Shown here piece by piece: positions 13,653 through 64,000 of a DNA stretch of 64,000 nucleotides (positions are counted from its first letter, which is position 1; each line of letters starts with the position of its first letter). Origin of the DNA: Candidatus Woesearchaeota archaeon (GTDB lineage Archaea > Nanobdellota > Nanobdellia > Woesearchaeales > 21-14-0-10-32-9). The translations under genes were made by a program, and so were the position numbers. A model generated the notes under the pieces. That model saw nothing but the letters and a program-made list of their open reading frames with translations, did not search any database and was not told where the DNA came from. The DNA is taken from the NCBI GenBank assembly GCA_021735165.1, contig JAIPHP010000001.1, positions 23,510 through 87,509 of the forward strand, read 5' to 3'.

Positions 13653-14438
13653 TTAATGAATATGCCCTGGACCAAATAAAGTTATTAAAATTATAATGCA
13701 AATACCTGCAAATATTGCTAGCAAATGAATAAAAGTATCTTTTAACTTGCAGTGCCTATGTAATTCAGGCAAAAGATTGGCAGACGCAATATACAAAAAA
13801 TTACCTGCTGCAAAAGGCAAGATAAATTGCGTAAACCCCTCTAATTTAGTTACCAAAAATATTCCGACAACAGTTCCTAAAATAGCAGATAAAGCAGATA
13901 AAAAATTAAACAATAAAGCTTTTTTCTTAGACATGCCCGAATAAAGCAAAACCCCAAAATCTGCTATTTCCTGAGGAATCTCATGAAATAATATAGATAT
14001 CGTCGCAGCAATCCCAACACTAGCATTAAAAGCAAATGAACCTGCAATAACAAGACCATCTAAAAAATTATGAATTCCATCACCGATTAAATTTATCGGA
14101 GCCAAATTATATGCATGACTATGACCAGATGCATTGCGTTCGCATTTTTTATCATGATGTGCATGAACAAATTTTTCAATAACAAACATCATAAAAAAAC
14201 CCAATAAGACATAAATTGCTAATCCCAAAGTGTACTTATCAGAAATTGCTTCTGGCAAAAAATTTATGAAAACTGTAGATAGCAAAACTCCAACTGACAA
14301 ACTTAACAAAAACAAAAGAACTTTCTTAGATATAGATTTTTTGACCAAAAAAGGAATAGCAACTAAGACAGATATTAAAGAAACTGAAATGGTTGCAAGT
14401 AAAGGATATAATACATTCATATAAATTGAGACAAGCAA
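13653..14438 (-). CDS. ZIP-family zinc/metal transporter (ZupT-like)
   Basis: HNFLDGLVIAGSF and HEIPQEIADFGVL motifs, 8 TM pattern, His-rich loop HAHHDKKCERNASGHSHA. Confidence 0.85.
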   Translation of the reverse strand: MLVSIYMNVLYPLLATISVSLISVLVAIPFLVKKSISKKVLLFLLSLSVGVLLSTVFINFLPEAISDKYTLGLAIYVLLGFFMMFVIEKFVHAHHDKKCERNASGHSHAYNLAPINLIGDGIHNFLDGLVIAGSFAFNASVGIAATISILFHEIPQEIADFGVLLYSGMSKKKALLFNFLSALSAILGTVVGIFLVTKLEGFTQFILPFAAGNFLYIASANLLPELHRHCKLKDTFIHLLAIFAGICIIILITLFGPGHIH

Positions 14439-17719: not shown

Positions 17720-17743
17720 ACCCCCTTTGCTAGCGCGCAATAA
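17719..17743 (+). repeat. 3'-end fragment of the PATE-like repeat family (AACCCCCTTTGCTAGCGCGCAATAA)
   Basis: matches the conserved 3' terminus of the elements at 20150, 26495 and 45897. Confidence 0.6.
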
Positions 17744-17991: not shown

Positions 17992-18765
17992 TTAATTCTT
18001 TTTTAATTTGTCTTTTTCAACTTTAAACTTAAAATGTAAGCTAAGTGTTTGCATAACTTCTTGAAAACTAACTTCTTCAACCAAGAGAGGAAGCATATCT
18101 TCATTCCAACGCTTATGCAAAGTCTTCGCTTTATTAAACATCTTCAAGATGCTAGGGTCATCACCAGACTCCTTGCATTTTTTCTTAACTAATTTCATGT
18201 TTATGGGTAGTTTATGTTTAATGATTTGATAAATATCATAATGATCTCTAGGTTTATTCCTACCAATTGCAGCAGCAACTTTTTCAGCAACCATCTCCTC
18301 GCGGTTCAGACAAGGGAAACTAAACTTGGGGATGTTTGGATAAAAATGTTTCATTTCTAACATTTCTGGTTTTAAAAATAATTTGCCTCTTGCATTAAGA
18401 TCGATAAAGATTTGATCATCCCCAAGAATTGATTTGTAAGGAACAACTAATCTGACAAACTTATCAACATCTTTATCTTGAGTAATTGTTCCGAATAATT
18501 TAGATTCAGCAATAATTTTCTCTACTTCTGTTCGAACTTCTTTCAAAGGTCGTTCAAGAGTAAAATCAATATCTTCACTAATACGAGCATGATCTAAAAG
18601 AGTCAACTGCAAAGCAGTACCTCCTTTAAAATAAATTCCGCTAATATCTTTCATTAAGTAAAGCAGGATTGTGATGTAGTAATCTTTGACCAATAGATCA
18701 TAGTCAAACCCAGTTTTAGCAATGATTTCAAGTAATTCATCTTTTCTTATTTCTTTGACATCCAT
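17992..18765 (-). CDS. AbiEii/DUF1814 nucleotidyltransferase toxin (type IV TA / abortive infection)
   Basis: GIYFKGGTALQLTLLDHARISEDIDF is the hallmark nucleotidyltransferase motif of the AbiEii family. Confidence 0.75.
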   Translation of the reverse strand: MDVKEIRKDELLEIIAKTGFDYDLLVKDYYITILLYLMKDISGIYFKGGTALQLTLLDHARISEDIDFTLERPLKEVRTEVEKIIAESKLFGTITQDKDVDKFVRLVVPYKSILGDDQIFIDLNARGKLFLKPEMLEMKHFYPNIPKFSFPCLNREEMVAEKVAAAIGRNKPRDHYDIYQIIKHKLPINMKLVKKKCKESGDDPSILKMFNKAKTLHKRWNEDMLPLLVEEVSFQEVMQTLSLHFKFKVEKDKLKKN

Positions 18766-26785: not shown

Positions 26786-26900
26786 GAACAAGAGAATTCG
26801 AAATAGCACTAGCATCAATGTTTCGAGAAAACAAGCTCATCAGAAGTATACAAATACATAACCGATTATCAGACTTAATCTACGTTTTAGCGCGCAATAA
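26786..26900 (+). pseudogene. degenerate duplicate of the 3' end of the PduO-like gene (compare 25352-25470), ending in another PATE 3'-end fragment (26889-26900)
   Basis: about 80% nucleotide identity to 25352-25470 by eye; the matching left flank 26479-26494 equals 25336-25351. Confidence 0.55.
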
Positions 26901-45742: not shown

Positions 45743-45758
45743 TTATTGCGTGCTAGCG
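45743..45758 (-). repeat. inverted solo 3'-end fragment of the PATE-like element (TTATTGCGTGCTAGCG)
   Basis: reverse complement CGCTAGCACGCAATAA is one mismatch from the family 3' end. Confidence 0.45.
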
Positions 45759-47021: not shown

Positions 47022-48107
47022 GTGAAACCGTCAGATATTTTCGGAGAAGTTGATTTGAAATTATTTGAAATATCTAAAAAGACAAGACCTATTTTCTACT
47101 CAACACCAGTCAACGAAGAAACTCAAAAAGAGATTTTTTTTACCAATAACTTGAAAAATCCTGAATTTGAGTTTCTACCTTTTGATTCTGACGAAAAACC
47201 TGAGAAACTTATCGACACCTTAAAATCTTTAAAAGTTCCTGATGGCATTTTAAAAGAAGTTTATCAGAAAAAAATTAATGAATTGATTTTGTTAAACGAA
47301 TTAAATCTTTGTAGAGGCAATTTAAGGAAGAGAAAAAAATTATCTAAACAGATTTTTGGTGTTCCTAGCAGTAGGTGCTTTGATTTTGCTAAAAATATTT
47401 TAGTTGGAGTTAGTGGTTTATCTTATTTTAATGATATTGATGTTGAGTATTTTATTAAAGAACTTCGCGGTTGTCTTATTAGGAATAATTTAAATGATTG
47501 GAAAATTGAACTGGTTGATAAAAAAAACATGGTTATTCATCAAGAAACTAAACAAATATTTGTAGGAAAGAACACAATTTACGCTCAGTCAGATATCGAT
47601 CGACTATTAGTTCATGATGTTGGTTGGCATGTTATGAGGGCCGCTAATGGTTTTAGACAAAGGTTGAAATTGTTTGTGTCAGGGTTTCCAGAATATCATT
47701 CTACTGAAGAGGGTGGTGCTTTGCTAGTTGAGCAACTAACTGGAAAACTTGAAATTAATACTTTGAGAATTTATGCTGCGCGCGTATTAGCTGTTGATGC
47801 TTTTTATCGCGGCAAGTCTTTCAAATACATTTTTGATATGTTTCTAAAGTATGGTTTTAGTCGTGATCAATCTTGGAACCTGGCAGTCAGAGTTTTTCGT
47901 GGAGGAGGACTGGGCAAAGACCACTTATATATAGAAGGTTTTTTAAAAATGAAAGAATTTATAAAAACAGAAGAAGATATTAAATTGTTCTATGTTGGCA
48001 AAATAGGTTTCACAAATATTGAGTTAGTTAAGAATTTGATTAAAGATAAATTTGTTGCTCCGGCTCTTTTTGTTCCCGATTTTATCAAAGATATTAAATG
48101 GAAATAG
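47022..48107 (+). CDS. DUF1704-family paralog with HDxxH in place of HExxH
   Basis: LLVHDVGWHVMRAANG...STEEGGALLVEQ aligns residue-for-residue with LLYHEVGVHVRRFQEG...ELEEGLATYYEF of 6080-7174. Confidence 0.6.
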   Translation: MKPSDIFGEVDLKLFEISKKTRPIFYSTPVNEETQKEIFFTNNLKNPEFEFLPFDSDEKPEKLIDTLKSLKVPDGILKEVYQKKINELILLNELNLCRGNLRKRKKLSKQIFGVPSSRCFDFAKNILVGVSGLSYFNDIDVEYFIKELRGCLIRNNLNDWKIELVDKKNMVIHQETKQIFVGKNTIYAQSDIDRLLVHDVGWHVMRAANGFRQRLKLFVSGFPEYHSTEEGGALLVEQLTGKLEINTLRIYAARVLAVDAFYRGKSFKYIFDMFLKYGFSRDQSWNLAVRVFRGGGLGKDHLYIEGFLKMKEFIKTEEDIKLFYVGKIGFTNIELVKNLIKDKFVAPALFVPDFIKDIKWK

Positions 48108-51791: not shown

Positions 51792-52205
51792 ATGATAACC
51801 GAACGAGCACTAAGCCTTACCTGCCCAAATAAAAAATGTTCAAAATACAAAAAACACCTGCGAGGAAACATAATAAAATATGGAACACAAAAAAACGGTG
51901 TGCCTAGATACAAATGCTCAGAATGCAAAAAAACATTTACAAAAATAAATAATGTGCGAAAAAATATGAAAATATCAAGAGAAGAATTCATTCATATATG
52001 CAAGTTAATGGCTCAAAAAATGAGCTTTAGAAAAATAAGCCGAAAAACAGGCAAACACCTAGACACAATAAGAGGTGTAGCAAATAGGATTACAGAAAAC
52101 TACAGAAAAATGCGTGATTACTTCAAAGACGATTTAAAAATGGAAGAACAAGAAGTAGAAAGCATGTGGAGTCATATCAAAAAAAAGAAAAAAATCAAAG
52201 AATGA
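51792..52205 (+). CDS. zinc-ribbon plus HTH protein resembling IS1 InsA / transposase N-terminal domains
   Basis: CPNKKCSKY...CSECKK C4 ribbon followed by helix-turn-helix-like region (ISREEFIHICKLMAQKMSFRKISRKTG). Confidence 0.5.
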   Translation: MITERALSLTCPNKKCSKYKKHLRGNIIKYGTQKNGVPRYKCSECKKTFTKINNVRKNMKISREEFIHICKLMAQKMSFRKISRKTGKHLDTIRGVANRITENYRKMRDYFKDDLKMEEQEVESMWSHIKKKKKIKE

Positions 52206-52422
52206 TAAAAACCTGAAAAACAGCAAGAAAATATAATTTTTAAAGAAAAGCATTGAAAACAAGTTTTCAGGGTTTTGAAAGCTTAACTTCTCAAAACCTT
52301 TAAAAACTGAACCTATTTCTCAAACATAAACATTCAGCCCCGCAGATATACCACCAAGATTTTTTCAAAAAATCTTGTAAAAAGAGTACGTTTTGCGGAG
52401 CTCAACAGTACAAAACACAAAA

Positions 52423-52571
52423 AGCCCCGTAGTGTAGCGGCCAATCATCCCAGCCTTTGGCCAACTGGTTTCGCTCGGTTGACACGCAAAGTGACATGCG
52501 CACTTCGTGCTTAGCCCCTGAGACAGATTGGAAGACAGCTGGGGACCTCGGTTCAAATCCGGGCGGGGCTA
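52423..52571 (+). tRNA. tRNA-Gln: tRNA-Gln(UUG) with approximately 76-nt intron at canonical 37/38 position (52461-52536)
   Basis: acceptor AGCCCCG/CGGGGCT, D-arm GTGTAGCGGCCAATCATC (as in archaeal tRNA-Gln), anticodon stem CCAGC/GCTGG with loop CTTTGG|A, T-arm CTCGGTTCAAATCCGGG; CCA not encoded. Confidence 0.8.
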
Positions 52572-52679
52572 TATCTGAGTCTCACGTCTTTTAGTGGACT
52601 CTTATTTTTCTTTATTTTTGCATCAAAAAAGGCAAATTATTTTAAGTTCAGCAATTCTTTAATTTTTAGGTGATATATA

Positions 52680-52964
52680 ATGGGGAATCTTTTTGAGAAC
52701 ACCAATGCAATTGTTAAGTCGTACATTGATAAGGGTAAATTTTATTTGTGTGATTTGGAAGATGAAATTCATACTCAAGATGGTATAATGAGGGTTGCGC
52801 CAGGACTTACAGTGAAAGAACATTTAGACGACTTGGCAGATGAAGGGGTTTTAGTAAAAGAAATTTCTCTTTACAAAAACTCAGGAAAACATGAGATTCA
52901 TTATTCAATTAATAAAGATTTTAAACCCAATTATGAGTTATTTAATATACCTGATATTATGTAA
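52680..52964 (+). CDS. hypothetical protein (cassette 1)
   Basis: ORF only. Confidence 0.35.
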   Translation: MGNLFENTNAIVKSYIDKGKFYLCDLEDEIHTQDGIMRVAPGLTVKEHLDDLADEGVLVKEISLYKNSGKHEIHYSINKDFKPNYELFNIPDIM

Positions 52965-53065
52965 TACAACATCGGAGTTTCATATATAAATAATGGCACT
53001 TGAGGTCGGGCGGGGCTATACCCTATCCACGGTAAATCTGTGGACTCCTTCTTTTAAATGGTTTT

Positions 53066-53740
53066 TTAGTTATCTAATTCTTCTAGAAATAATTTCAGGT
53101 GCGGTTCTGTTTGCAGTTCTTTTATTTCGTTTTGAGTCATTGGTTTGTTTTGGTTGTTTAGTATTTTTTGATTACCCCATGATTCGTTTATTTTTTGCAG
53201 TAGGTATTTGCTTTCTGGGATTAGTTGCTTAATTTTTTCGTTGAAGAAATACTCAACTAAATTTTCTTTTATTGAATTGTTTTCTTGTTCTTGAACAATT
53301 AATTCTTTTGCTATGTAGAGGAATCCTTTTATGCATTTTTGGTAGTCTTCTTCGTCTAGTTTTTCTAGGAATATTCTTATTTCTTGGTTTTTTGCATAGA
53401 GTTTGAATTGTAAATGTTTGTCTGAGTGTCCTTTTTTGTGGTGGTGTATCATTGATTCTTTTGTTTCGCCTTCTAGTGTGAATTTTGATGATTTGAGATT
53501 TAAGCAATATTCGTCTTCTACTAATGAGTTTGTTTCTGTTAGTGTTATTTGTATTTCTTCTTGAGAAAATGTGGTTACATATTCGTCTTCGTATTGTCCT
53601 CTATTGTTTTTGAGGTTTTCAAGATTTGCGTATTCTGGCAGGATGTAGATATATTTTGGTTTACTCATAGTAAATGTCTCCTTATATCGTAGTGTAGCGA
53701 GTCTTTTGATAGGTTGTTTTTTTCGTATGCTTCTGACCAA
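53066..53740 (-). CDS. hypothetical protein
   Basis: ORF only. Confidence 0.35.
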   Translation of the reverse strand: MVRSIRKKQPIKRLATLRYKETFTMSKPKYIYILPEYANLENLKNNRGQYEDEYVTTFSQEEIQITLTETNSLVEDEYCLNLKSSKFTLEGETKESMIHHHKKGHSDKHLQFKLYAKNQEIRIFLEKLDEEDYQKCIKGFLYIAKELIVQEQENNSIKENLVEYFFNEKIKQLIPESKYLLQKINESWGNQKILNNQNKPMTQNEIKELQTEPHLKLFLEELDN

Positions 53741-54273
53741 TTATCTCTATTGAAGTAGTCTTCTATTGTTTCAAATTGATAAAGTTTTATATCGAAAATT
53801 TCTTCTAGTAGTTGTTTTAAGCATACAAAATAAATCAAATCTTTTTCTTTACTAATTACATTTTCTGGATTTTCCCAACCTTTTCCACTATTAATGTTCA
53901 CAATTTCTAGATCAAGTCGCCAGTCAAGGTCTTGTGACCTTGATAGTTCTTTTAATGATTTGTTTTGTAATAGCGCGATTATTGAGATGTCGTTGTATTT
54001 ACATACAACTACGTATTCTTGGTTTTTTATTTTTATGTGTACTGTCTTATGAGCTGTTTCGTATTTTGTTCCTATGATGTTTCCTTTTTGTATTATTGTT
54101 GTGTTCTTTTCAGAATTAAGAGCATTCGCTAATTTGATTAGTCTTAAGATTATTTGTTCGTGTGTTTCTTTACCTTTGGCTAGTTCTTCTAGCATGTCTT
54201 TGGTTTTTTGTTTGAGTCTTATTGTTGAAGACTTTTCGCTTGAGGTTATGTTTACTTTTTCCATTCCAATCAC
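53665..54273 (-). CDS. hypothetical protein, possible N-terminal ribbon-helix-helix
   Basis: N-terminal STIRLKQKTKDMLEELAK pattern; weak. Confidence 0.35.
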   Translation of the reverse strand: MIGMEKVNITSSEKSSTIRLKQKTKDMLEELAKGKETHEQIILRLIKLANALNSEKNTTIIQKGNIIGTKYETAHKTVHIKIKNQEYVVVCKYNDISIIALLQNKSLKELSRSQDLDWRLDLEIVNINSGKGWENPENVISKEKDLIYFVCLKQLLEEIFDIKLYQFETIEDYFNRDNWSEAYEKNNLSKDSLHYDIRRHLL

Positions 54274-54397
54274 CCATATATAATGTATACAACATATACA
54301 AAGTATATAAATTTTGTGTTTTTGTAATGCAAAATCGGAGATTTATTTATAAATAAACAGATAGGGGTCAGGCAGGCTATTTCATATTTCATATCCA

Positions 54398-55156
54398 TTA
54401 TTTTTTTGAAAGTTCCCATAGGAGCTTAAAATATTTTTTATAAGCTTCTGCTATTTCCTGTTGTTTAATCATGAATGCAAGTGGTTTTTCGGACCAGTGA
54501 ATAATTACAACTCTGCTTCCATAAACATAAGTTGTTGAAGGGTTTATATATTCGTCTGAGATATATTTTATTTTACATGACTGTAATTCTTGTTCTCTTT
54601 GTTCAATTCTTATTTTTTCTGAAAAAATTATTGACATTGATATTTTTAATTTTATTCGTGTCTTGTGAAAATTATTAAAGTATGTTGGGAATAGCTTTTT
54701 GAAAGATCCACTTGCACCCCACACGTAAAAATGATTTTTTTGCTTTATTATGTCTTCAAATATATTTTTTAGACCATTTTTTCCTTCATACACTGCGCCT
54801 TCTAGTTGTTGCCCAACAGATCTTATTTTCTCCATTTCTGGAATAATTCTTTGTATTTCTTCTTCTTGTTTTTCAAGTTCTGATTTTTTATTTTTAATAA
54901 ATTCAGTTAATTTATTGAATGCTTCTGCTTGGAAATATTTCTTTTTTCTTTTAATTATGTATGATACTAATCCTTTGTTTATAAGAAGATCTAAGAGGTT
55001 GTAGACTACTGCTCTGTGAAGCCCTGCTTTTTTTATAAGTGGTCCTGCTGAAGTTGTTCCTAATTCTATTAAATGTAAGTAAACTTTTGACTCTTGTGGT
55101 GTAAGTCCTGCTTTGACTAAAATTGTATTGTCCATATAGATGTAATTATATTTCAA
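54398..55156 (-). CDS. TrmB-family transcriptional regulator (paralog 1 of 3)
   Basis: N-terminal TrmB HTH (GLTPQESKVYLHLIELGTTSAGPLIKKAGLHRAVVYNLLDLLINKGLV). Confidence 0.7.
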   Translation of the reverse strand: MKYNYIYMDNTILVKAGLTPQESKVYLHLIELGTTSAGPLIKKAGLHRAVVYNLLDLLINKGLVSYIIKRKKKYFQAEAFNKLTEFIKNKKSELEKQEEEIQRIIPEMEKIRSVGQQLEGAVYEGKNGLKNIFEDIIKQKNHFYVWGASGSFKKLFPTYFNNFHKTRIKLKISMSIIFSEKIRIEQREQELQSCKIKYISDEYINPSTTYVYGSRVVIIHWSEKPLAFMIKQQEIAEAYKKYFKLLWELSKK

Positions 55157-55176
55157 ATATATAAATTTGTCGTAAT

Positions 55177-55905
55177 ATGATATTATTACAAATTTATAAA
55201 TATATGTTTCAATTACACTTTACAATGGTAACAAACCAAGACTATCGGTCTGCAAAAGAATACTTTGACAATATCTGGTCAGAACAACAAGAATCACTAA
55301 TTGATTTATGTTCATATAAATCTAAACAAGATTTTTATGTAATTGCTGACTTTGATGATTCAGGGATAATTTTTGAAGACAAGAAACAAAGAGGTTTTTC
55401 TGCATTAGATTTATCGGGAGTTACAAATAAAGTGGTTCTGATAAAATATGCTTCATTTGAATTTTCTTTCAAAGAAAACACCAATTTTTATACTAAACTT
55501 TATGAGGATATGAACAAATTTATTCTGTCTTCCGGAACTGGTTTAGAAATACTGAATCCTCCTAAAGTGGGTTTATTTCTATTCAATCAATATCTAACAT
55601 ATATTCTTGAGAATGAAAAAAACTGGAAAAAAACGACAAAAAAAGAGAAAAGTCAAACAGGTTTGCTTTTTTCTGGTTATGTTCAAGACACGACAAAACC
55701 ATATAAATTAACCTTTGAGAATAGTCTTGAGGATTTGGTGAAAATTACAGAACAATACATTCTAAAAAGTTTTTCTGAAATCGAAAGAAGACCTTTTTTT
55801 GAAACTAATATCAAAGGCAATGTTAGAGATTTATTTACTGATTGTTATATTGGAAAGACAATTAATGATGCTTACATAGAAGATATATTAAAAGCGACAG
55901 GCTAA
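55177..55905 (+). CDS. hypothetical protein
   Basis: ORF only. Confidence 0.35.
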   Translation: MILLQIYKYMFQLHFTMVTNQDYRSAKEYFDNIWSEQQESLIDLCSYKSKQDFYVIADFDDSGIIFEDKKQRGFSALDLSGVTNKVVLIKYASFEFSFKENTNFYTKLYEDMNKFILSSGTGLEILNPPKVGLFLFNQYLTYILENEKNWKKTTKKEKSQTGLLFSGYVQDTTKPYKLTFENSLEDLVKITEQYILKSFSEIERRPFFETNIKGNVRDLFTDCYIGKTINDAYIEDILKATG

Positions 55906-56132
55906 TATTTTTTTGATAACATTTGATATACATTCTCCGAGATAGGTATTTATAGTATGACAAACGGCAGGGGCTATCAATCTTTGAGAATACTAAAAAA
56001 TCTGTTGATTTTCGGTGTACCAAAAATATACTATTTCTGTGTATATTCGAAGGAAAAACACTTGGGTTTTTAAGAAAAGTTTATATGCGTTCATTTTAAA
56101 TGAAAACATTTATATATTTTAAATGAATACAT

Positions 56133-57341
56133 TTGAATATGTTATCTAAAGATGTACTTAAAGAGGTTGTTTTAGCTCAGCAAAAGGATTTGGAATTACC
56201 TTTTGGTGTGACTCGAGAAAAACAAGTTAAACCTTTAAAGAAATTTGCTCTTATCATAACTGGTCTTCGAAGATCTGGCAAATCAACTTTATTGAGACAA
56301 TATTTTAGTAACAAAAAACCAATTTATTATCTCCATTTTGAAGATTTACGTCTTTCTTCTTTTGAGAGTTCTGACTTTACCAAATTAAATGTTGTTTTTG
56401 AAGAAGTATTAGGGAATGATGGTGTTTATTTTCTCGACGAAGTTCAAAACATTAATAGTTGGGAGATTTATGTCAGGTCGCTTGTGGATTCGGGAAAAGA
56501 AGTTTATGTAACTGGTTCCAATAGTTCTTTAATGAGTAAAGAATTGGGTACAAGACTCACTGGCAGACATATTTCAGAAGAGCTCTATCCTTTTAATTTT
56601 TCGGAGTTTTGTCTGGCAAAGAAGAAAAAAGAATCACTTAAGCTTTTTGATGATTATCTTGTTTCAGGGGGGTTGCCTGAATATGTTCTTCAACAAGATG
56701 TAAGGATTTTAGAATCACTAGTTAAAGATATTATTTACAAAGATGTCTTAGTGCGTCATAGAATTCGAGAGGAAGCAATAGTTGAAAGATTGGTCTCTTA
56801 TATATTGTCAAATATAGGAAAAGAAATATCTTATAATAAAATAAAAGATTTGATGGGTGTTGGTTCTCCAAATACCATAATTTCTTTAATGGATGCATTA
56901 GAAGATGCTTATTTTATATTTACAATAAACACGTTTGATTATTCTTTAAAAAAACAACTTCGAAATAAGCGAAAGGTGTATTGTGTAGATAATGGATTTA
57001 TAACTCAGACATCTTTGCAATTTTCAAAAAATTTAGGAAGATTACTAGAAAATCTTGTTTTTGTAGAATTAAAACGAAGAGGGTATGAAATATTTTTTCA
57101 TAAAGAAAAATATGAATGTGATTTTATAATAAAAAAGAATAATTTATCTGCAATACAAGTTTGTTATGAACTTAATCTAGATAATCAACAAAGAGAGCTT
57201 AATGGTTTAGTTGAAGGTATGAAAAAGATAAAAGCCACCGAAGGTATAATAATTACCCGTCATCAAGATGATTTTTTTGAAATAGATGACATGAAAATAA
57301 AAGTTGTTTCGATAATGGATTGGTTAAAAGAATTTGAATAA
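56133..57341 (+). CDS. AAA-type ATPase of the archaeal DUF4143 (AAA_14) family
   Basis: Walker A ITGLRRSGKST, Walker B FLDEVQ, typical about 400-aa architecture. Confidence 0.75.
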   Translation: MNMLSKDVLKEVVLAQQKDLELPFGVTREKQVKPLKKFALIITGLRRSGKSTLLRQYFSNKKPIYYLHFEDLRLSSFESSDFTKLNVVFEEVLGNDGVYFLDEVQNINSWEIYVRSLVDSGKEVYVTGSNSSLMSKELGTRLTGRHISEELYPFNFSEFCLAKKKKESLKLFDDYLVSGGLPEYVLQQDVRILESLVKDIIYKDVLVRHRIREEAIVERLVSYILSNIGKEISYNKIKDLMGVGSPNTIISLMDALEDAYFIFTINTFDYSLKKQLRNKRKVYCVDNGFITQTSLQFSKNLGRLLENLVFVELKRRGYEIFFHKEKYECDFIIKKNNLSAIQVCYELNLDNQQRELNGLVEGMKKIKATEGIIITRHQDDFFEIDDMKIKVVSIMDWLKEFE

Positions 57342-57387
57342 AATGGTTTTTAAGAGTTCTTTAAGGTCGCTGATTAGGGGCGCCGTC

Positions 57388-57564
57388 GGGCGGGGCTATA
57401 CTCCTTTGCGTGATATCAGAGAGCTTTCTTTTTGATGTCTGCAATTTTCTCTTTTTGGAGTCTCAAACTGATGAATTTTGATGTTTGAGAAAAATTTATC
57501 CAAACAATATTTTATTAGAAAAATGTTAAAAAACACTGTTTTAACATAGCTCAGGCAGGGCTAT
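57388..57564 (+). repeat. approximately 175-bp non-coding unit bounded by two core copies (copy 1)
   Basis: homologous along its whole length to 60905-61080. Confidence 0.7.
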
Positions 57565-57568
57565 TTGT

Positions 57569-57970
57569 TTATCCACCCAGCGATTCTAAATATTTCATTC
57601 GTGCAAAGTATTCTTTCATTTCCCTTCCTTGAATGGAAATAGTTACAGGCAGTTTAAGCTGGCTAATTTCTTTTGCCACTTCTTCTGCAAAACCTTCTGC
57701 AGCGATTCTATAATTAAATCCTTTTCCGTTTTTATAAAATTTATTTGTGTACAAATAGTTTTTTTCTATGTCTTTTCCATTCATCAATTCAAGTTTTACT
57801 CGCCAAAGGATGTGTGTTTCCGGCGAGTTTACAAAGTCAAAAGAGTCTCTTATGAACCTAAAAGGAAAAGTAATATCGTACCAATATCTATTTTTGTAGG
57901 TTATGTTAATCTTTTCTATCGTTCGAGAGGGAATCTCTTCTAAGATTGAGTTAAGGGTCGCATAGGTCAT
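57569..57970 (-). CDS. hypothetical protein
   Basis: ORF only. Confidence 0.35.
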   Translation of the reverse strand: MTYATLNSILEEIPSRTIEKINITYKNRYWYDITFPFRFIRDSFDFVNSPETHILWRVKLELMNGKDIEKNYLYTNKFYKNGKGFNYRIAAEGFAEEVAKEISQLKLPVTISIQGREMKEYFARMKYLESLGG

Positions 57971-58065
57971 TATTTAATGGTGAATATCCTGACCATATTA
58001 ATTTGTGTGGTGATTATTTCACCACAGAAAGAAACATTTAAATAGTTTATAGCCTAATTAGGTTT

Positions 58066-58770
58066 ATGGATACTTTTGCTTTAGAAAACATTGATTTAAA
58101 TGAAAAAGAAATAACAATATATTTAGTATTATTAAAAGTAGGTAAACTTTCTGGCGGCAAGATTGCAGAAAGAATCAGCACTCATAGAAGAACTGTTTAT
58201 GATGCATTATCTTCTTTGGTTGAGAAAGGTTTAGTAACCTATGTTATCTATAATAAAATAAAGTATTTTAGTGCTGTCGATCCAAAGAGGATAGTTGATA
58301 TTGTCGATGAACGAAGTTCTGCTGTGAAAAGAATGCTGCCTAAATTGGAAGCATTGCAAAAAAAATCTATTGAAGATGCTAAGGTTGAAATCTATCAAGG
58401 TATTAAAAGCATCAAACATATCTTTGAAGAAATTCTAACTTACAAATCGTATTCTGTTCTGGGTTCTGGGAAACCTTTAAGGGAGCTACTTGGACCATTT
58501 TTCCTATTATTTCAGAAAGAGAAGAAGATAAAAAAAATATCTTCAAAAATCATTATTTCTGAAATGTATTCAACAGACGATGTTAGCACTAAATCTTTTG
58601 GAGAAATAAGATTTATTAAAGATTATGACCCTCCTACAACAACATATATTTATGGTTCTAAAGTTGCAATTATTATTTCAGAACCTCCTTTGGCGATATT
58701 AATTGATAACAATCACGTTAATAGTTCATTTAAACTTTATTTTGACAAGATATGGGACAATATCGTTTGA
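58066..58770 (+). CDS. TrmB-family transcriptional regulator (paralog 2)
   Basis: N-terminal TrmB HTH (KEITIYLVLLKVGKLSGGKIAERISTHRRTVYDALSSLVEKGLV). Confidence 0.7.
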   Translation: MDTFALENIDLNEKEITIYLVLLKVGKLSGGKIAERISTHRRTVYDALSSLVEKGLVTYVIYNKIKYFSAVDPKRIVDIVDERSSAVKRMLPKLEALQKKSIEDAKVEIYQGIKSIKHIFEEILTYKSYSVLGSGKPLRELLGPFFLLFQKEKKIKKISSKIIISEMYSTDDVSTKSFGEIRFIKDYDPPTTTYIYGSKVAIIISEPPLAILIDNNHVNSSFKLYFDKIWDNIV

Positions 58771-58893
58771 TTTTATACATTTGATTAACATACTCCGAGG
58801 CAGGTATTTATAGTATGACGAACGGGCGGGGCTATACCGGAGTCTCACGTCTTTCGAGGGACTCTTTAATTTTCTTATCTTAATTATTTTAAT

Positions 58894-58935
58894 CAATACA
58901 TTTAGGTGACCACATATTTAAATTTTAAACAATTG
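58894..58935 (-). promoter_or_regulatory. palindromic operator-TATA module GGTGACCAC-N23-GTGGTCACC enclosing TTTAAATAT, duplicate copy at the 3' side of the Fic gene
   Basis: 24-bp TAGGTGACCACATATTTAAATTTT identical to 59862-59885. Confidence 0.45.
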
Positions 58936-58939
58936 GTGG

Positions 58940-59851
58940 TCACTTTATCTTTTTTAGTTGTTTCTTGTACTGTTTTATTAGAAATTGTAATGTTGGTCTT
59001 AATTTATCATTATGTTGATATTCGTAAAGACTTTTGTAGTATTGTGCTCTATCTTCTAAGAGTATGTTTATTGGTGGATAATTATTTTTTATTAAAATAA
59101 AATTTAATAATAGTCTTCCTACTCTTCCATTCCCATCTTGAAATGGGTGCATATCTTCAAATTGATTGTGAATGATTGAGGCAAGTGTTAATGGTTCAAA
59201 TTTAGTTTTATTTTTTTTATACCATTTAATAAACTCATTTAATTCTTTTTGTAGTTCTTTTACAGGAGTTCCTGCGTGGATTATCTCTCCATTTCTTCCT
59301 CGTATAATAACTTCTACTGTTCTAAATTTCCCTGCAAATTCTTTTGAACCTTTAAAACATAATTCATGTAATTTTAAGATTAGATTTAGTGATAAATCTT
59401 GTTTTGTAATTCTAATAAATTTAATTGCTTTTGCTACTCCTTTCGTTTCTATTTCCTCAGCATTTAGATCTTGTTTTTTTTGTAATATTTTAGAGATTTC
59501 TTCTTGTAATACTGTTGATCCTTCTATTGCATTTGTATTATATACGAATTCTTCTGTAAATTGATTCCAGTCTTTTTCATCAAAATGAGTTATTTTTATT
59601 TTTTCAGAATATTTATTTAATGAACTAATTTCTTTATCTGATAATGAAAATTCAAAAATATTTGTTTTCATCAATTCAATTTGTTGGTGGATTATTTCTT
59701 TAGCTTTTTTTTCTTTTAATTTTAATTCTTCTTCTGTTAAATTACTTCCAAGAAATTTTCTTAATTTAGTGACTTTGTTATTTTCATCTCTAAAAGAATG
59801 GACTAAATAATATTTTGTGTTGTTTTTTAGTTTTCTTTTTTCAATGAACAT
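58940..59851 (-). CDS. Fic/Doc-family protein (paralog 1); start placed at internal ATG, the ORF-track start at 59902 is a GTG inside the upstream palindrome
   Basis: HPFQDGNGRVGRLLLNFIL Fic motif; N-terminus MFIEKRKLKNNTKYYLVHSF parallels the paralog MRILKRKNSYYLQHSF. Confidence 0.8.
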   Translation of the reverse strand: MFIEKRKLKNNTKYYLVHSFRDENNKVTKLRKFLGSNLTEEELKLKEKKAKEIIHQQIELMKTNIFEFSLSDKEISSLNKYSEKIKITHFDEKDWNQFTEEFVYNTNAIEGSTVLQEEISKILQKKQDLNAEEIETKGVAKAIKFIRITKQDLSLNLILKLHELCFKGSKEFAGKFRTVEVIIRGRNGEIIHAGTPVKELQKELNEFIKWYKKNKTKFEPLTLASIIHNQFEDMHPFQDGNGRVGRLLLNFILIKNNYPPINILLEDRAQYYKSLYEYQHNDKLRPTLQFLIKQYKKQLKKIK

Positions 59852-59861
59852 AGTAATTAAG

Positions 59862-59903
59862 TAGGTGACCACATATTTAAATTTTGTGTATTTTGTAGTC
59901 ACC
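59862..59903 (-). promoter_or_regulatory. promoter/operator of Fic paralog 1: inverted repeat GGTGACCAC/GTAGTCACC flanking TATA-like TTTAAATAT about 25 bp upstream of the ATG
   Basis: read directly; archaeal TATA consensus and spacing. Confidence 0.5.
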
Positions 59904-60015
59904 TTTTTAATAGATTTTAGGATTGTGTAGTTCCATGCGAGGCCGGGCAGGGCTATTCATTACTTTTTTCTTAATTTTAGAAATATTTATATATTTGTAA
60001 TGGCATTCTATATAA

Positions 60016-60867
60016 ATGAGAATACTAAAGCGCAAAAATTCCTATTATTTACAACATTCATTTAGAAAAAATGGAAAAACCATAACTAAAGAAAAGTACG
60101 TAGGACTTAAAGTTCCTGAAAATATAGATGCTGTTAAAAAAAAATTCTTAGCTGAATGCAGAAAAGAAGCATTTTATGATGTTTTTGAAATAATAAAGGA
60201 TAAATTTAATCAAGAATGGAACCGTTTTCCTCCCTCCATAAAAGAGAAGATGATTCAAGAATTATCAATAAACTTTACATACAATACCAACGCCATAGAA
60301 GGCTCGACAATCAGCGAGGAAGAAACAAGAGATATAGTCGCTCACGGAATTTCGCCTTCAAAACCACTCAGAGACGTTAAAGAAACGGAAAAACACGCAG
60401 TACTTTTCAAAAATATTTTTCAAAAAAAACAAAAAATTACAAAGAAAACCTTAATTGATTGGCACAACAAACTTTTTTCTGAAACAAAACCTGACATCGC
60501 AGGCAAATTCAGAGACTATCTTGTAAGAGTGGGAAGCTACAAAGCACCTGATTGGCAAGATATAAACAAACTACTTGATGAATTCATAAAGTTTCAAAAC
60601 GCCAAAAATAATATTCACGCAGTAGAATTTGCATCAAGAATACACTACCGATTTGAAAAAATTCATCCATTTGGAGATGGAAACGGTAGAATAGGCAGAC
60701 TCATCATGAACGCGATGTTATGGAAAAGAGGCTATCCTGTGCTGATAATAGAATATAAAAAAAGAAAATCTTACTACAAAGCACTACAAAAAGACGAAGA
60801 ATATTTTGTTCAATATTTTATAAGAAGATATTTAGCAGTTCATAAAAAATACTTGAATAAAAAATGA
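60016..60867 (+). CDS. Fic/Doc-family protein (paralog 2)
   Basis: HPFGDGNGRIGRLIMNAML Fic motif. Confidence 0.85.
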   Translation: MRILKRKNSYYLQHSFRKNGKTITKEKYVGLKVPENIDAVKKKFLAECRKEAFYDVFEIIKDKFNQEWNRFPPSIKEKMIQELSINFTYNTNAIEGSTISEEETRDIVAHGISPSKPLRDVKETEKHAVLFKNIFQKKQKITKKTLIDWHNKLFSETKPDIAGKFRDYLVRVGSYKAPDWQDINKLLDEFIKFQNAKNNIHAVEFASRIHYRFEKIHPFGDGNGRIGRLIMNAMLWKRGYPVLIIEYKKRKSYYKALQKDEEYFVQYFIRRYLAVHKKYLNKK

Positions 60868-60904
60868 TTTTTCCTCTCTTTTTGACGTTATTGTCCGTGT
60901 TCCC

Positions 60905-61080
60905 GGGCAGGGCTATATTCCTTTGCGTGACATCAGAGAGCTTTCTTTTTGATGTCTGCAATTTTCTATTTTTAGCCTTTGAAGTTCATGAATTTTGATG
61001 TTTAAGAAAAATCTTGTTAACCTGTAATCTCTTCAAAAAATGTCAAAAAACTGTGTTTTAGGATAGCTCATGCTGAGCTA
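60905..61080 (+). repeat. approximately 175-bp non-coding unit bounded by two core copies (copy 2)
   Basis: homologous to 57388-57564, including CCTTTGCGTGAYATCAGAGAGCTTTCTTTTTGATGTCTGCAATTTTC. Confidence 0.7.
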
Positions 61081-61830
61081 ATATGTTCCATCTTCCCAAA
61101 GTTTATCAAACCATTCAACATAAAATTTGGCTATTTCTTGGTTCTTTATTAAAAATGCTGCATAATATCCTTTTTTCATCACAGTTGTTATTATATAATC
61201 TGAGAATATATCAATATAAACCGGACTTGTCACTGGCAAATATTTTATTTTCATAAGACCTGGTTTTCTTTTTATGTGATCCAATTCTTTTTTTGAATTT
61301 AGCTTCATAAGATATTTTCCTTTTATTCCAAGATTCACTCTTTTTTTGTGGTATTCTTCCCAATATCCGGGCATTGCATCTTGAGCTATCTTGTCTGAGC
61401 CAAAAACTCTGATAATGTCTCCTTTTTTTAGTTCTTTTAAAGAAATATCTCTGGCTGTTTTTACGCCTTCTATACCTTTATATAATTCCGCTTCATCTCT
61501 TTGTCCAGAAAATGATTGTATTATTTCAAGTTGAGAAATTATTTTTTGTGCATCAGATTCCAATGTATTGAGTTCTTTTTTCTTGTATTCTATATAATCT
61601 TGTATTTTTTTTGGATCTGCCGCATTGAAATATTTGGTTTTCCCTTTTGTGATTGATGTTATTAATCCTTTATCGTGTAATTTACTTAATACATGATATA
61701 TTTTTGATCTTGAAACTTTCGCATCATCAATTATAGGCCCTACTGTGGTTGAACCTATTTTTATTGTAGATAAGTATACTTTAATTTCGGCGTCAGTAAG
61801 GCCTAGTTTTTTGAATAACGCTGTTTCCAT
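61078..61830 (-). CDS. TrmB-family transcriptional regulator (paralog 3)
   Basis: N-terminal TrmB HTH (GLTDAEIKVYLSTIKIGSTTVGPIIDDAKVSRSKIYHVLSKLHDKGLI); C-terminal region aligns with the other two paralogs. Confidence 0.7.
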   Translation of the reverse strand: METALFKKLGLTDAEIKVYLSTIKIGSTTVGPIIDDAKVSRSKIYHVLSKLHDKGLITSITKGKTKYFNAADPKKIQDYIEYKKKELNTLESDAQKIISQLEIIQSFSGQRDEAELYKGIEGVKTARDISLKELKKGDIIRVFGSDKIAQDAMPGYWEEYHKKRVNLGIKGKYLMKLNSKKELDHIKRKPGLMKIKYLPVTSPVYIDIFSDYIITTVMKKGYYAAFLIKNQEIAKFYVEWFDKLWEDGTY

Positions 61831-61928
61831 GCTGTTCGTAAATCTATTTTCTATTTATATTTTTCTAATTAGTAGCCCCTCGGTGGGAAGACAATATTTA
61901 AATAATTGTTCTTATTCATCAGTACTAA

Positions 61929-63143
61929 ATGATATCTGAGAATGGCAACTCAAAAATTGTAAGACCTTATACAAAAAAAGATGTATCTCAATTACAAAAT
62001 TCCATTAAGATAGAACATACTATGGCGAATCAGGGTTCAAAAAAATTACATTCGCAATTAAAATCTGAAGGATATGTCAGTGCGCTAGGTGCCCTAACCG
62101 GTAATCAGGCAATTCAACAAGTAGAAGCAGGTCTTAGAGCAATTTATGTTAGTGGGTGGCAAGTTGCTGCTGATGGAAATACTTCTGGGACTATGTATCC
62201 TGACTTGGGATTATATCCCTCAAACAGCATGCCTGCTACCATTAGGGCAATAAATAACGCTCTACTTAGGAAAGATCAAATTGAACCACAAAAAGCAGAT
62301 TGGTTAGTGCCTGTTGTCGCAGATGGAGAAGCTGGGTTTGGAGGAGTACTAAATACATATGAGCTTACAAAAAATATGATTGAAGCTGGCGTAGCAGGAA
62401 TTCATTTAGAAGACCAACTTCCTTCTGCAAGAAAATGTGGCCATCTAGGAGGTAAAGTCCTTATTACACCACAAGAGTTTATAGACAAGCTAGTTGCTGC
62501 AAGATTGGCATCGGACGTATTGGATGTTCCAACGGTTATAATTGCTAGAACGGATGCCTATGGAGCCGAATTCATTACTTATGATGTAGATCCAGATGAC
62601 AAAAAATTTTTGTCAGGTGAACAAACCTATGAGGGATTTTACAAAGTAAAAGGAGGCATCGATCTTGCAATTAAAAGAGCATTAAAATATGCTCCTTACG
62701 CAGATGCCTTGTGGTTTGAAACACCAACTCCCAATTTACATGATGCAAAATTATTTTCAGAAAACATACACAAAAAATATCCTAATAAAGCCCTATTTTA
62801 TAATTGTTCGCCCTCTTTTAATTGGACAAATACAATTAACGTAGAGAACTTCCAAGATGAACTTGGAAAAATGGGGTATAAATTTCAATTTGTAACACTT
62901 GCAGGTTTTCATTCATTAAATAGTTCTATGTTCAATCTTTCCAAAGAATACAAAGAGAGAGGTATGGCTGCATATTCAGAATTACAACATAATGAAATTA
63001 ATTTAGAAGATAAAGGATATTCAGCATTAAAACATCAATCCTTTGTAGGAACAAAATATTATGACAATTTATTAAGAATAATAATGCAAAATAAGTCTTC
63101 AACAAATTCTTTGGATAAATCAACAGAGATAAATCAATTTTAA
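61929..63143 (+). CDS. aceA: isocitrate lyase
   Basis: AIYVSGWQVAADGNTSGTMYPDLGLYPSNSMP (matches AceA core) and catalytic RKCGHLGGK signature K[KR]CGH. Confidence 0.85.
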   Translation: MISENGNSKIVRPYTKKDVSQLQNSIKIEHTMANQGSKKLHSQLKSEGYVSALGALTGNQAIQQVEAGLRAIYVSGWQVAADGNTSGTMYPDLGLYPSNSMPATIRAINNALLRKDQIEPQKADWLVPVVADGEAGFGGVLNTYELTKNMIEAGVAGIHLEDQLPSARKCGHLGGKVLITPQEFIDKLVAARLASDVLDVPTVIIARTDAYGAEFITYDVDPDDKKFLSGEQTYEGFYKVKGGIDLAIKRALKYAPYADALWFETPTPNLHDAKLFSENIHKKYPNKALFYNCSPSFNWTNTINVENFQDELGKMGYKFQFVTLAGFHSLNSSMFNLSKEYKERGMAAYSELQHNEINLEDKGYSALKHQSFVGTKYYDNLLRIIMQNKSSTNSLDKSTEINQF

Positions 63144-63195
63144 AATATTTCTTTAGCTCTGAAATGTCACGCTTTCGTTATTAGAACGGGCAGGG

Positions 63196-63879
63196 CTATA
63201 TCCGTATTCTTTGTAGTGCATTTATGAGGTATCCTGATATTATTATTGCGATTGTTACTATTGCAAAGAATGTTAGTATGAGTTTGAGTTTCATTGCTCG
63301 TCTTAGGATTATTGCTTCTGGGAAGCTTAGTGCTGTTATTGCCATCATGAATGCTAGTGCTGTTCCTAGAGGTATTCCTTTTTCGAAAAGTGCGAGAGCA
63401 ATAGGCACTATTCCTGCGCTGTTTCCGTACATTGGCACTCCTAGTATTACTGCGAGTGGTACTGAGAATATTCCTGTTGAGTTGATTAGTGTTTGTATGA
63501 CTTCTGTTGGTACGTAGTTGTGTATTATTGCTCCTATTCCTACACCTATAAGTATCCAGTACCAGAGTTTTTTAGTTATGTCTTTGGCTTCTTTCAGTCC
63601 ATATTTGATTCTTTGTTTGATATTTGTGAATTTTTCTTCTTTTAGTTTGCTTGATTTTTGAATGTCTTCTACTAAGTGTTTTTCTAAATTCATTTTGCCT
63701 ATTATTATTCCAGAAACAACTCCTATTATTATTCCTATGAGTATGTATGCCAGTGTTATTTTCCATCCGAATGTAGCTAACATAATTATTGCTAGATATT
63801 CATTCACTATTGGCGATGTTATGAGAAAGGACATTGTTATTCCTAGAGGGACTCCTGCTCTTAGAAAGCTCAAAAACAA
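63196..63879 (-). CDS. membrane permease-like protein (possibly N-terminally incomplete in ORF call)
   Basis: multiple TM helices; ORF longer than overlapping + strand ORFs. Confidence 0.45.
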   Translation of the reverse strand: MFLSFLRAGVPLGITMSFLITSPIVNEYLAIIMLATFGWKITLAYILIGIIIGVVSGIIIGKMNLEKHLVEDIQKSSKLKEEKFTNIKQRIKYGLKEAKDITKKLWYWILIGVGIGAIIHNYVPTEVIQTLINSTGIFSVPLAVILGVPMYGNSAGIVPIALALFEKGIPLGTALAFMMAITALSFPEAIILRRAMKLKLILTFFAIVTIAIIISGYLINALQRIRI

Positions 63880-64000
63880 AGGTATTGATGAGCATGAGCA
63901 AAAAGGCGTTATTGCTCCTAGGAGCGCTGCACTTATGTTTCCCAGTCCATATTTTTGTTTGCTTAATCTTTTTTTTATAGTTTCTTGAGATATGTATCTT

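Follow-up and report, generated by a model that had tools for sequence, protein, structure and literature searches.

Fragments of tRNA genes derived from integrating elements are commonplace, and PYG1 of Pyrococcus yayanosii, which also uses tRNA-Gln(TTG), has a core of 44 bp (PMC9897764). Archaeal arrays formed by re-use of one integration site are known as well (PMC6563490). The closest described analogue of the locus reported here is found in Dehalococcoides, where ssrA islands are arranged in tandem at the tmRNA gene and bounded by 20-bp direct repeats of its 3' end; about half of them lack an integration module and were interpreted as cis-mobilizable elements spread by accretion (PMC3146451). 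Furthermore, pipolins use tRNA 3' ends as platforms with attachment (att)-like direct repeats and exchangeable defence genes, and tandem accretion was invoked for them (PMC11551731). Integrons exist in archaea too, mostly as integron arrays without integrase (CALINs) (PMC9668308).

The subject of this study is a locus in a 64,000-nucleotide stretch of DNA (referred to as the window) from a Candidatus Woesearchaeota archaeon (contig JAIPHP010000001.1), which is probably a metagenome assembly. DPANN archaea are host-dependent organisms with very small genomes, and little is understood of how they acquire and exchange accessory and defence genes. An earlier note, made from the sequence alone, had proposed that a tRNA-Gln gene in the window anchors an array of cassette-like units separated by copies of its 3' end, and this array was found to be real. 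In all likelihood, positions 52561-63200 are an accretion array that arose by repeated site-specific recombination at the tRNA-Gln 3' end, with integrase-less cassettes that were probably moved in trans. The note had regarded the arrangement as undescribed in small-genome archaea. No description of such arrays was found in the open-access literature, but tandem att islands of bacteria (PMC3146451) and element arrays of archaea (PMC6563490) make it less unprecedented than the note had stated.

For comparison, species-representative genomes were scanned for the tRNA-Gln 3' end, which yielded 38 loci, mostly from Woesearchaeota and Nanoarchaeota metagenome-assembled genomes (MAGs); relatives of the Fic units were collected by a protein-guided metagenome scan (80 loci). 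The right-hand side was extended by 4.3 kb past the window end with the identical public contig L001. Default ARAGORN and Rfam reported no tRNA in the window, because the gene is interrupted by a 76-nt intron. With introns allowed, ARAGORN identified a tRNA-Gln(UUG), the exons of which align to the intron-less tRNA-Gln orthologue of the related locus L011. The core at its 3' end, CGGGCRGGGCTAT, recurs on the same strand in six solid and two degenerate copies. At a threshold of two mismatches to the 13-mer GGGCGGGGCTATA, seven occurrences were found, all on the forward strand (52561 in the tRNA itself, 53008, 57388, 58824, 59945, 60905, and 63188), against 0.11 ± 0.31 expected from dinucleotide-preserving shuffles. 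No copy was present in positions 1-52400 or in the 4.3 kb past the window, 57 kb of other sequence in all; every copy lies between tRNA-Gln and arsP. At least ten copies besides that of the tRNA had been counted in the earlier note. The degenerate ones at 54370 and 55967 were accepted because their flanks fall in arm families shared with solid sites, and the start of another was corrected from 58823 to 58824. The copy assumed at 57554, part of a hairpin (TAGCTCaggcaGGGCTA) inside a 177-nt repeat, is doubtful, and that at 61064 was rejected, being a palindrome (TAGCTCAtgcTGAGCTA) homologous to 57554.

The conserved block reads C-GGGC(G/A)GGGCTAT. Its position 5 is G in the tRNA and in the perfect (13/13) sites nearer to it, and A at the three cores farthest away (59945, 60905, and 63188). 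Every copy continues ...GCTAT(A/T) as the gene does, and CCA was seen at none; the repeats are therefore copies made at the DNA level, and an origin from the mature tRNA end by retro-derivation was ruled out. As had been claimed, the copies are intergenic with a single exception, 63188, where CTA, read on the opposite strand, forms the arsP stop codon. A second assembly, made independently from the same sample (SRR12088349), agrees with the window across the cores 58824, 59945, 60905, and 63188.

The intron content of tRNA-Gln differs among the relatives, from none in L011 to 40-76 nt elsewhere, and L044 apparently has two introns, in the D-loop and the anticodon loop. Intron-containing genes are located at L044 1323-1484, L072 1399-1536, L131 c[13916-14032], and L130 c[11367-11479]. 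ARAGORN mis-typed the tRNA-Gln of several relatives as Ser, Pyl, or Stop.

Together with the tRNA's own core, the eight further copies (nine cores in total) bound eight units of 0.43-2.3 kb, 1.3 kb on average, each with one or two genes and none with an integrase (Table 1). An earlier estimate of 0.45-2.1 kb and zero to two genes thus held with regard to small size and both gene orientations, but no unit is empty. The array holds 13 genes in both orientations, including three divergent pairs, and the orientation of the cores is uniform regardless of that of neighbouring genes. The gene content given in the note was confirmed by Pfam (three TrmB, one AAA_14/DUF4143, two Fic, and ICL, isocitrate lyase), as was ArsP. 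Paralogues within the array share just 25-34% identity and, therefore, the array did not grow by local duplication. The DUF4143 ATPase matches the PADLOC defence candidate PDC-S01 (E = 5e-109), and both Fic1 and Fic2 match SoFic/PDC-S04. The cargo is mostly accessory and partly defence-like (three PADLOC candidates, isocitrate lyase, three TrmB-like regulators, and several proteins without assignment). In relatives, AbiE, pairs of nucleotidyltransferases, and a TIR-STAND protein were found. Searches of the array proteins without assignment against PHROGs and NCBIfam gave no mobile-element signal other than that of an IS1-like neighbour outside the array. Exact-protein look-ups of the DUF4143 and Fic1 open reading frames (ORFs) returned no match, probably owing to start-codon choice.

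The sequences flanking the cores fall into families: upstream arms A (53008, 54370), B (55967, 58824), and C (60905), and downstream arms a (tRNA trailer, 58824) and b (57388, 60905; 177 nt at 81% identity). Arm pairs are similar with z = 8-28 compared to shuffles, and the breakpoints lie at the core edges, in line with the mosaic flanks proposed earlier. Specifically, about 95 nt upstream of site 58824 resemble site 55967 up to the 3' edge of the core, and similarity to the tRNA trailer begins at the 5' edge of the same core and continues downstream. This makes site 58824 a chimera whose junction falls within the 14-bp core. Arm b is 81% identical to the tRNA-Gln trailer of L010, though the Rad50 proteins of the two are only ~56% identical, and ~110 nt downstream of the 55967 core resemble the tRNA-Gln trailer of L027. 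Such matches to the trailers of other genomes point to horizontal spread of the arms. A metagenome scan with a conserved 22-mer of arm b gave no match. GGACTC followed by a T-run occurs ~21 nt after the core at 52561, 53008, and 58824, and the same arrangement with GGAYTC was found at seven sites in five genomes (background ~0.003 per site). Conservation of arms outside the core suggests that they may serve as protein-binding sites.

Site 53008 had been described as conserved in structure and not in sequence, in the manner of attC sites. This did not hold, as the site shares GGACTC and the T-run with other arms. Similarly, the hairpin expected in the 50-bp sites was present 3-6 nt after the core, followed by a T-run, at only five of nine. 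These features raise the question of a functional transcription or RNA signal (a terminator, a promoter element, or a small-RNA gene) that merely resembles a tRNA end: five of the eight sites lie between convergent genes, five have the hairpin and T-run directly downstream, and TATA-like boxes are found ~25 nt upstream in arm families A and B. We consider this most improbable. The orientation of the repeat stays constant whatever that of the neighbouring genes, the 57 kb of other sequence is free of copies, the core sites have no Rfam match (a permissive Rfam scan of the array gave a single sub-threshold, snoRNA-like chance match), and, as described below, the repeat co-varies with the host tRNA-Gln and marks homology breakpoints between genomes.

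In most relatives tRNA-Gln stands alone, and several carry one to three extra same-strand core copies just downstream. The predicted gain, loss, and shuffling of units were all observed. Locus L011 is syntenic with the window (Rad50, IS1-like gene, tRNA-Gln, and arsP), but the distance from tRNA to arsP is 1.27 kb with two unrelated genes, as opposed to 10.6 kb in the window. Fic2 was found in four contexts, with amino acid identities to the window of 93% (L043), 84% (L044), and 66% (L005). In the window and these three loci, the DNA left of the core is unrelated, and alignment starts at the core and runs through a conserved upstream region into Fic2. The right boundary, a core ~35 nt past the stop codon, is common to the window and L043, and a degenerate core is located at a similar distance in L044 and L005. 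The order in L044 is tRNA, a 188-aa unit, core, Fic2, degenerate core, Fic1 (-), and a degenerate core with arm B; in the window, it is core, Fic1 (-), core, and Fic2. The two Fic genes are thus swapped with their orientation to the cores kept. Among the 80 Fic loci, only the closest homologues are associated with cores. The use of Fic as a marker for arrays was dropped, since most Fic2 homologues (50-62% identical) do not adjoin cores.

When all collected loci were screened by k-mers, an independent array emerged in L072, where tRNA-Gln(CUG) is accompanied by four same-strand copies of its own variant CGCCCGGGGCTAT, one of them ~60 nt upstream of a Fic gene. The repeat co-varies with the host tRNA-Gln in this way in L072 (CGCCCGGGGCTAT), L134 (GCGCGGGGCTA), and L136 (CCCTGGCGGGGCTA). 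L131 is syntenic with the window over a Na/Ca exchanger, MATCAP, Rad50, a 390-aa gene, the IS1-like gene, and tRNA-Gln. Downstream of the tRNA it has two integrase-less nucleotidyltransferase units (1.3 and 1.1 kb), followed by a core, an integrase, and TraC/VirB4-, TrbL-, and TrbC-like genes. Both of these mini-units end in an upstream arm, 85-86% identical to arm C of the window, and a core.

Further features lie within the units. A 23-nt exact direct repeat (AGGTGACCACATATTTAAATTTT, 58904-58926 and 59863-59885) brackets Fic1, each copy forming the first half of an imperfect palindrome of ~44 nt. The stretch of the Fic1 module that is homologous to L044 (58903-59907) is delimited by the two repeats and not by the cores; the repeat may act as an operator or mark a second, nested boundary of a module. 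A 38-nt inverted repeat of unit 3 (55141-55217), the arms of which are 74% complementary and separated by 1 nt, sits precisely between the divergent genes for TrmB1 and the 242-aa protein and is probably a shared operator. Isocitrate lyase (61929-63143; PF00463, E = 2e-93) is unexpected metabolism in a reduced genome and was probably acquired horizontally. An AbiEii toxin homologue is encoded outside the array at 17992-18765 (-); the same family is array cargo in L027.

The absence of a recombinase from the window, stated in the earlier note, was verified: neither Pfam on ~36 ORFs nor a family hidden Markov model (HMM) run on all six frames detected an integrase or a fragment of one in the 64 kb or the 4.3 kb beyond. 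Window ORFs that overlap cores have at most 79 aa and no similarity to integrases. The recommended search for a recombinase was successful in relatives, including the orthologous locus L131, and revealed a tyrosine integrase family linked to tRNA-Gln. In L072, the unit next to the tRNA (4.9 kb) contains genes for a TIR-NACHT-TPR protein and for a tyrosine recombinase of 397 aa (PF00589, 30.1 bits at a cutoff of 27.1; motifs GIR, YDFRH, GW, and HYY), the gene of which ends ~165 nt before the next core. The family comprises 2300 matches, the named ones being Woesearchaeota and Nanoarchaeota integrases. No NCBIfam model, that of integron integrase included, matched it at E ≤ 0.01, and the L072 protein has no sequence match in the PDB. 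A family member adjoins a tRNA-Gln-type core in six of seven sampled contexts, a small sample given 2300 members (L072, L130, L131, L134, L136, and a fossil in L035). In L130, the integrase is 220 nt from tRNA-Gln(UUG) and a perfect core lies 5.1 kb away. In L134, the end variant GCGCGGGGCTA of tRNA-Gln(CUG) recurs 158 nt past the integrase, at a distance of 8.8 kb. In L136, a core follows the integrase after 184 nt, and a second core 2.6 kb further on bounds an integrase-less unit. In L035 (5370-6014), right after tRNA-Gln, the N-terminus of a methyltransferase (DPPY motif) is fused in frame to the C-terminal catalytic part of an integrase. The seventh member, L137, has no tRNA-Gln core in view and a nearby tRNA-Tyr without repeats. 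Among 95 ORFs located downstream of tRNA-Gln in the 38 relatives, Pfam revealed no recurrent integrase, these 8-kb loci being too short or free of inserts.

SSV-type elements carry the att core within the integrase ORF, and their integration splits the gene into N and C parts. Intact integrase ORFs, with the core 160-220 nt past the stop codon, were found in L072, L130, L131, L134, and L136; the family is therefore non-partitioning, and an SSV-type partitioning integrase was ruled out. Modules of the Xer/dif type are bounded by ~28-bp sites that alternate in orientation and comprise a pair of inverted arms for recombinase binding. Such pdif-like modules were also ruled out, as the sites in the window are asymmetric and all in direct orientation. 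TrbC-pilin-, TrbL-, and TraC/VirB4-like genes adjoin the integrase in Woesearchaeota MAGs (L131 979-7206, also L132 and L137), and the L131 region appears to be an integrative element of conjugative type in a DPANN archaeon.

As the window has no integrase and the core is the only GC-rich identity common to the units, insertion without a dedicated integrase, through general or microhomology-mediated recombination of the host at a GC-rich 14-mer of its AT-rich genome, was also considered. It is very unlikely, given that six genomes have a dedicated integrase family in physical linkage with exactly this site, that conserved arms beyond the core suggest protein binding, and that the orientation is strictly uniform. 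An even smaller chance is given to target-site duplications left by the tandem insertion of transposons or casposons with a preference for the tRNA 3' end. Casposons do generate duplications of 14-15 bp at tRNA 3' ends and can be stacked in tandem (PMC6563490), and an IS1-like gene lies beside the tRNA. However, terminal inverted repeats are missing (all eight units score within the shuffle null), and no Cas1 or DDE domain was found by Pfam among the ORFs tested. The IS1-like 137-aa protein has no catalytic domain and is syntenic in relatives, for which reasons a role in recombination was dropped for it; the same role was dropped for a poorly conserved 388-aa neighbour. Since the IS1-like gene has kept its position beside tRNA-Gln in L011, L033, and L131 (73% amino acid identity in L131), it looks domesticated rather than mobile.

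Serial recombination by a tyrosine integrase very probably explains the uniform orientation, the confinement to one region, the chimeric sites, the co-variation with the tRNA, and the trailer arms. A circular element would carry an attP composed of an upstream arm, a 13-14-bp core identical to the last bases of the tRNA, and a downstream arm, and this attP would recombine with the tRNA's own core. The tRNA gene would be regenerated, with the downstream arm of the element (hairpin, GGACTC, and T-run) as its new trailer and putative terminator, and a copy of the core would stay at the far end of the insert. New insertions at the tRNA would push older units outward and give the order tRNA-U1-core-U2-core...U8-core-arsP, with all cores in one orientation and with internal sites that are chimeras of the arms of two elements. 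Since position 5 of the core is still G in the tRNA and A in the three distal cores, crossover would take place on the 3' side of this position. The enzyme would be the divergent, non-partitioning tyrosine integrase (PF00589) of Woesearchaeota and Nanoarchaeota, encoded elsewhere in the genome or by a visiting element, and mini-units would be excised and re-inserted in trans, as proposed for cis-mobilizable elements. We infer action in trans from the fact that the units lack an integrase, yet Fic1 and Fic2 behave as discrete modules across genomes.

The same locus could alternatively be a fossil island, in which a few full-size, integrase-bearing elements integrated in tandem and decayed in place, leaving the cores as dead scars between units that were never mobile. 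We consider this unlikely, although it would agree with a window devoid of integrase, with two degenerate cores, with decayed cores in L043 and L044, with the integrase eroding next to the tRNA in L035, and with three proximal sites that carry the arm type adjoining the integrase in L131 and L035. Independent decay in situ would not be expected to give identical boundaries, but the 0.95-kb Fic2 unit has the same core as its left boundary in four genomes with unrelated neighbours, and its right boundary is the same in the window and L043, with a degenerate core similarly placed in L044 and L005. Moreover, the Fic1/Fic2 order changed without a change of orientation to the cores, and L131, L072, and L136 have comparably small integrase-less units beside an intact integrase.

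Several observations weigh against the accretion of units by site-specific recombination. The array is lacking in most relatives and hence not constant in the lineage. Cores at the Fic2 unit differ at 5 of 26 positions between the window and L043, compared to ~10% overall; they have diverged at least as fast as their surroundings, so some sites may be non-functional fossils. The independent assembly breaks at the tRNA core and within the 177-nt repeat, and three junctions are therefore supported by the window only. In SRR12088349, the sole public sample with these sequences, no alternative unit orders were found, the order being that of the window. The window and its extension are free of integrase, as described above. 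Finally, no attP on a virus or plasmid and no free or circular form was found in four scans of viral collections with arm-plus-core or core patterns, which gave either no matches or seven chance ones in coding regions of contigs with 47-65% GC. None of the three outcomes that the earlier note had named as contrary to its proposal was observed, namely the same gene order in related genomes with the repeat absent or away from unit boundaries, a common genome-wide 13-mer unrelated to tRNA-Gln, and flanks without mosaic sharing.

The note had left the choice between an integron-like platform and a stack of tandem integrations. Tandem integration was supported, and membership in the integron family was not, since attC core sites and IntI are missing. 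In integrons, attC consists of R'' (RYYYAAC) and R' (GTTRRRY) around an imperfect palindrome of 55-141 nt, and cassettes are mostly promoterless, co-oriented, and expressed from Pc. A canonical integron array that has lost its integrase would fit short, mostly one-gene units with a recurring site between them, and CALINs have been reported in DPANN archaea, GTDB Nanoarchaeota included (PMC9668308). The probability of this is nevertheless negligible: RYYYAAC...GTTRRRY pairs were absent from either strand of 52400-63400 (2.8 in shuffles), the recurring site lacks dyad symmetry and directly copies the 3' end of a tRNA, genes occur in both orientations, the conserved upstream region of Fic2 lies inside its unit, and the linked integrases match no NCBIfam model, that of IntI included.

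More tentatively, and with less than even probability, the locus may represent an integron-like gene-capture system of DPANN archaea, in which short cassettes of one or two genes with their own promoters would be captured at tRNA-Gln and excised and reshuffled in trans by the previously uncharacterised tyrosine integrase of a conjugative-type element. The cassette end may then be a ~50-bp site composed of the conserved upstream arm and the 14-bp tRNA-Gln core. If so, minimal genomes would have at their disposal a reservoir from which defence and accessory genes could be exchanged. Provided that mobilization of the small units in trans still takes place, this would be a second, independently evolved answer to the integron's problem, and the core repeat, which delimits the cargo, would be a handle for finding archaeal defence genes. 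Should the units prove to be fossils only, the locus would nonetheless document serial integration cleanly and help to map the crossover site of the integrase. It is of interest in any case as a recurrent insertion hotspot at tRNA-Gln with a large unnamed tyrosine integrase family targeting it and with cassette-size units that vary between genomes.

Table 1. Features of the tRNA-Gln locus and its flanks (window positions; handles beginning with L denote related loci)
Feature	Position	Strand	Remarks
137-aa IS1-family N-terminal Zn-ribbon/HTH protein, conserved left flank	51792-52205	+	NCBIfam; no DDE domain
tRNA-Gln(UUG), anchor (attB/attL)	52423-52571 (exon 1 52423-52460, intron 52461-52536, exon 2 52537-52571)	+	ARAGORN with introns; exon alignment
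Core copy 0, GGGCGGGGCTATA, tRNA 3' end (last T-stem bases, acceptor 3' strand, discriminator, +2 nt)	52561-52573	+	
Downstream arm a, present tRNA trailer: hairpin GAGTC..GACTC, then GGACTC and T-run	52574-52618	+	80% identical to 58837-58881; hairpin z = -3.4
Unit 1, 434 bp: 94-aa ORF 52680-52964 (+), no family match	52574-53007		
Core copy 1, perfect 13/13	53008-53020	+	Upstream arm family A 52957-53007; downstream hairpin CCACGG..CTGTGG, GGACTC, T-run
Unit 2, 1.35 kb: 224-aa ORF 53066-53740 (-) and 202-aa ORF 53665-54273 (-), no assigned function	53021-54369		
Core copy 2, degenerate, AGGCAGG-CTATT, 1-nt deletion	54370-54382	+	Upstream arm family A 54320-54369
Unit 3, 1.58 kb: TrmB-like regulator 54398-55156 (-) and 242-aa ORF 55177-55905 (+), divergent	54383-55966		
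Core copy 3, degenerate (GGCAGGGGCTAT / GGCAGGGGCTATC)	55967-55979	+	Upstream arm family B 55919-55966
Unit 4, 1.41 kb: AAA_14/DUF4143 ATPase 56133-57341 (+)	55980-57387		
Core copy 4, perfect	57388-57400	+	
Downstream arm b, copy 1 (177-nt repeat D1; hairpin and pseudo-copy 57554)	57401-57563	+	81% identical to 60904-61080
Unit 5, 1.42 kb: 133-aa ORF 57569-57970 (-) and TrmB-like regulator 58066-58770 (+)	57401-58823		
Core copy 5, perfect, chimeric site	58824-58836	+	Upstream arm B 58777-58823; downstream arm a 58837-58881
Unit 6, 1.11 kb: Fic1 58940-59851/59902 (-)	58837-59944		76% amino acid identity to L044
Core copy 6, GGGCAGGGCTATT, A variant	59945-59957	+	Left breakpoint of Fic2-unit homology, four genomes
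Unit 7, 0.95 kb: Fic2 60016-60867 (+) with own conserved upstream region	59958-60904		
Upstream arm C, TTTTGACGTTATTGTCCGTGTTCCC, right end of unit 7	60867-60904	+	85-86% identical to arms before both L131 internal cores, and to L043
Core copy 7, A variant, then arm b copy 2	60905-60917	+	
Downstream arm b, copy 2	60918-61080	+	
Unit 8, 2.27 kb: TrmB-like regulator 61078-61830 (-) and isocitrate lyase 61929-63143 (+)	60918-63187		
Core copy 8, A variant, distal boundary (putative oldest attR)	63188-63200	+	CTA = arsP stop codon, minus strand
arsP-type permease, conserved chromosomal flank	63196-64000, to ~64152 in L001	-	77% nucleotide identity to L011

Apart from the array, two MATCAP-like proteins (PF08014, tubulin tyrosine carboxypeptidase family) are encoded in the window at 6080-7174 (-) and 47022-48107 (+), and a vasohibin-like protein is encoded in L044 (10713-11330); both families are unusual for a DPANN archaeon. 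A second GC-rich repeat, approximately TTAAACCCCTYNC-GCTAGCGCGCAA-TAA, was found at 17729, 20274, 26771, and 45941 (+), at 45746 (-), and in a weaker form at 26886. It is unrelated to the tRNA-Gln core, mostly located just 3' of genes, and preceded by the hairpin CGACCTAAAGGYCGG at 20274 and 26771. This repeat could be a terminator-associated element, a REP-like element, or a small RNA.

Compared to the systems introduced above, the locus is most similar to the Dehalococcoides ssrA islands, with which it shares the tandem arrangement at a tRNA-like gene, short 3'-end repeats, integrase-less members, and strain-specific accessory cargo. Those islands are bacterial and use the serine recombinase DsiB, the gene of which overlaps the repeat, whereas here the host is archaeal and the integrase, known from relatives, is a tyrosine recombinase. 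They are also many kb in size, up to 100 kb in total, in contrast to eight units in 10.6 kb, none with an integrase. Pipolins, on the other hand, are bacterial elements of tens of kb that are defined by piPolB, bring their own integrases, and are not split by att copies into single-gene units.

A second likeness is to cis-mobilizable elements (CIMEs) and the accretion of streptococcal integrative conjugative elements (ICEs), where units with functional-looking att sites on their flanks, but without integrase or transfer genes, lie beside an integrase-bearing conjugative element that uses the same site; the layout of L131 matches this. CIMEs, which usually occur singly, are regarded as deletion derivatives of ICEs. 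All eight units of the window are att-flanked and free of integrase and transfer genes, and an integrase-bearing element with the same att site is present in L131 and L072. Mobilization is here suggested by comparative genomics.

With archaeal elements of the pNOB8 type, the locus has in common integration at a tRNA 3' end, a direct repeat at the far end, an intact tRNA gene, and an intact integrase gene outside the core. The site is differently filled between conserved flanks in L011 and L131, and an integrase with the catalytic R..K..HxxR..H/W..Y set, missing from the eight units, was found only in relatives (L072, L130, L131, L134, and L136). Unlike in pNOB8-type elements, the integrase family is divergent (weak match to PF00589, none to NCBIfam or PDB sequences), and most units are integrase-less mini-cassettes. 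The core of only 13-14 bp is much shorter than the 44 bp of PYG1.

Integrons and CALINs are functionally analogous in that they have a fixed capture point, short site-ended cassettes in an order that varies between genomes, and arrays that often lack an integrase. The locus differs from them in having no attC anatomy, IntI, or attI, in a site that is a direct repeat of a tRNA 3' end, in insertion that would regenerate the tRNA gene, and in cassettes that occur in both orientations and appear to carry their own promoters. What is new here are eight integrase-less units averaging 1.3 kb in a DPANN host, a large unnamed integrase family specific for tRNA-Gln, and exchange at the level of cassettes as indicated by comparison between genomes.

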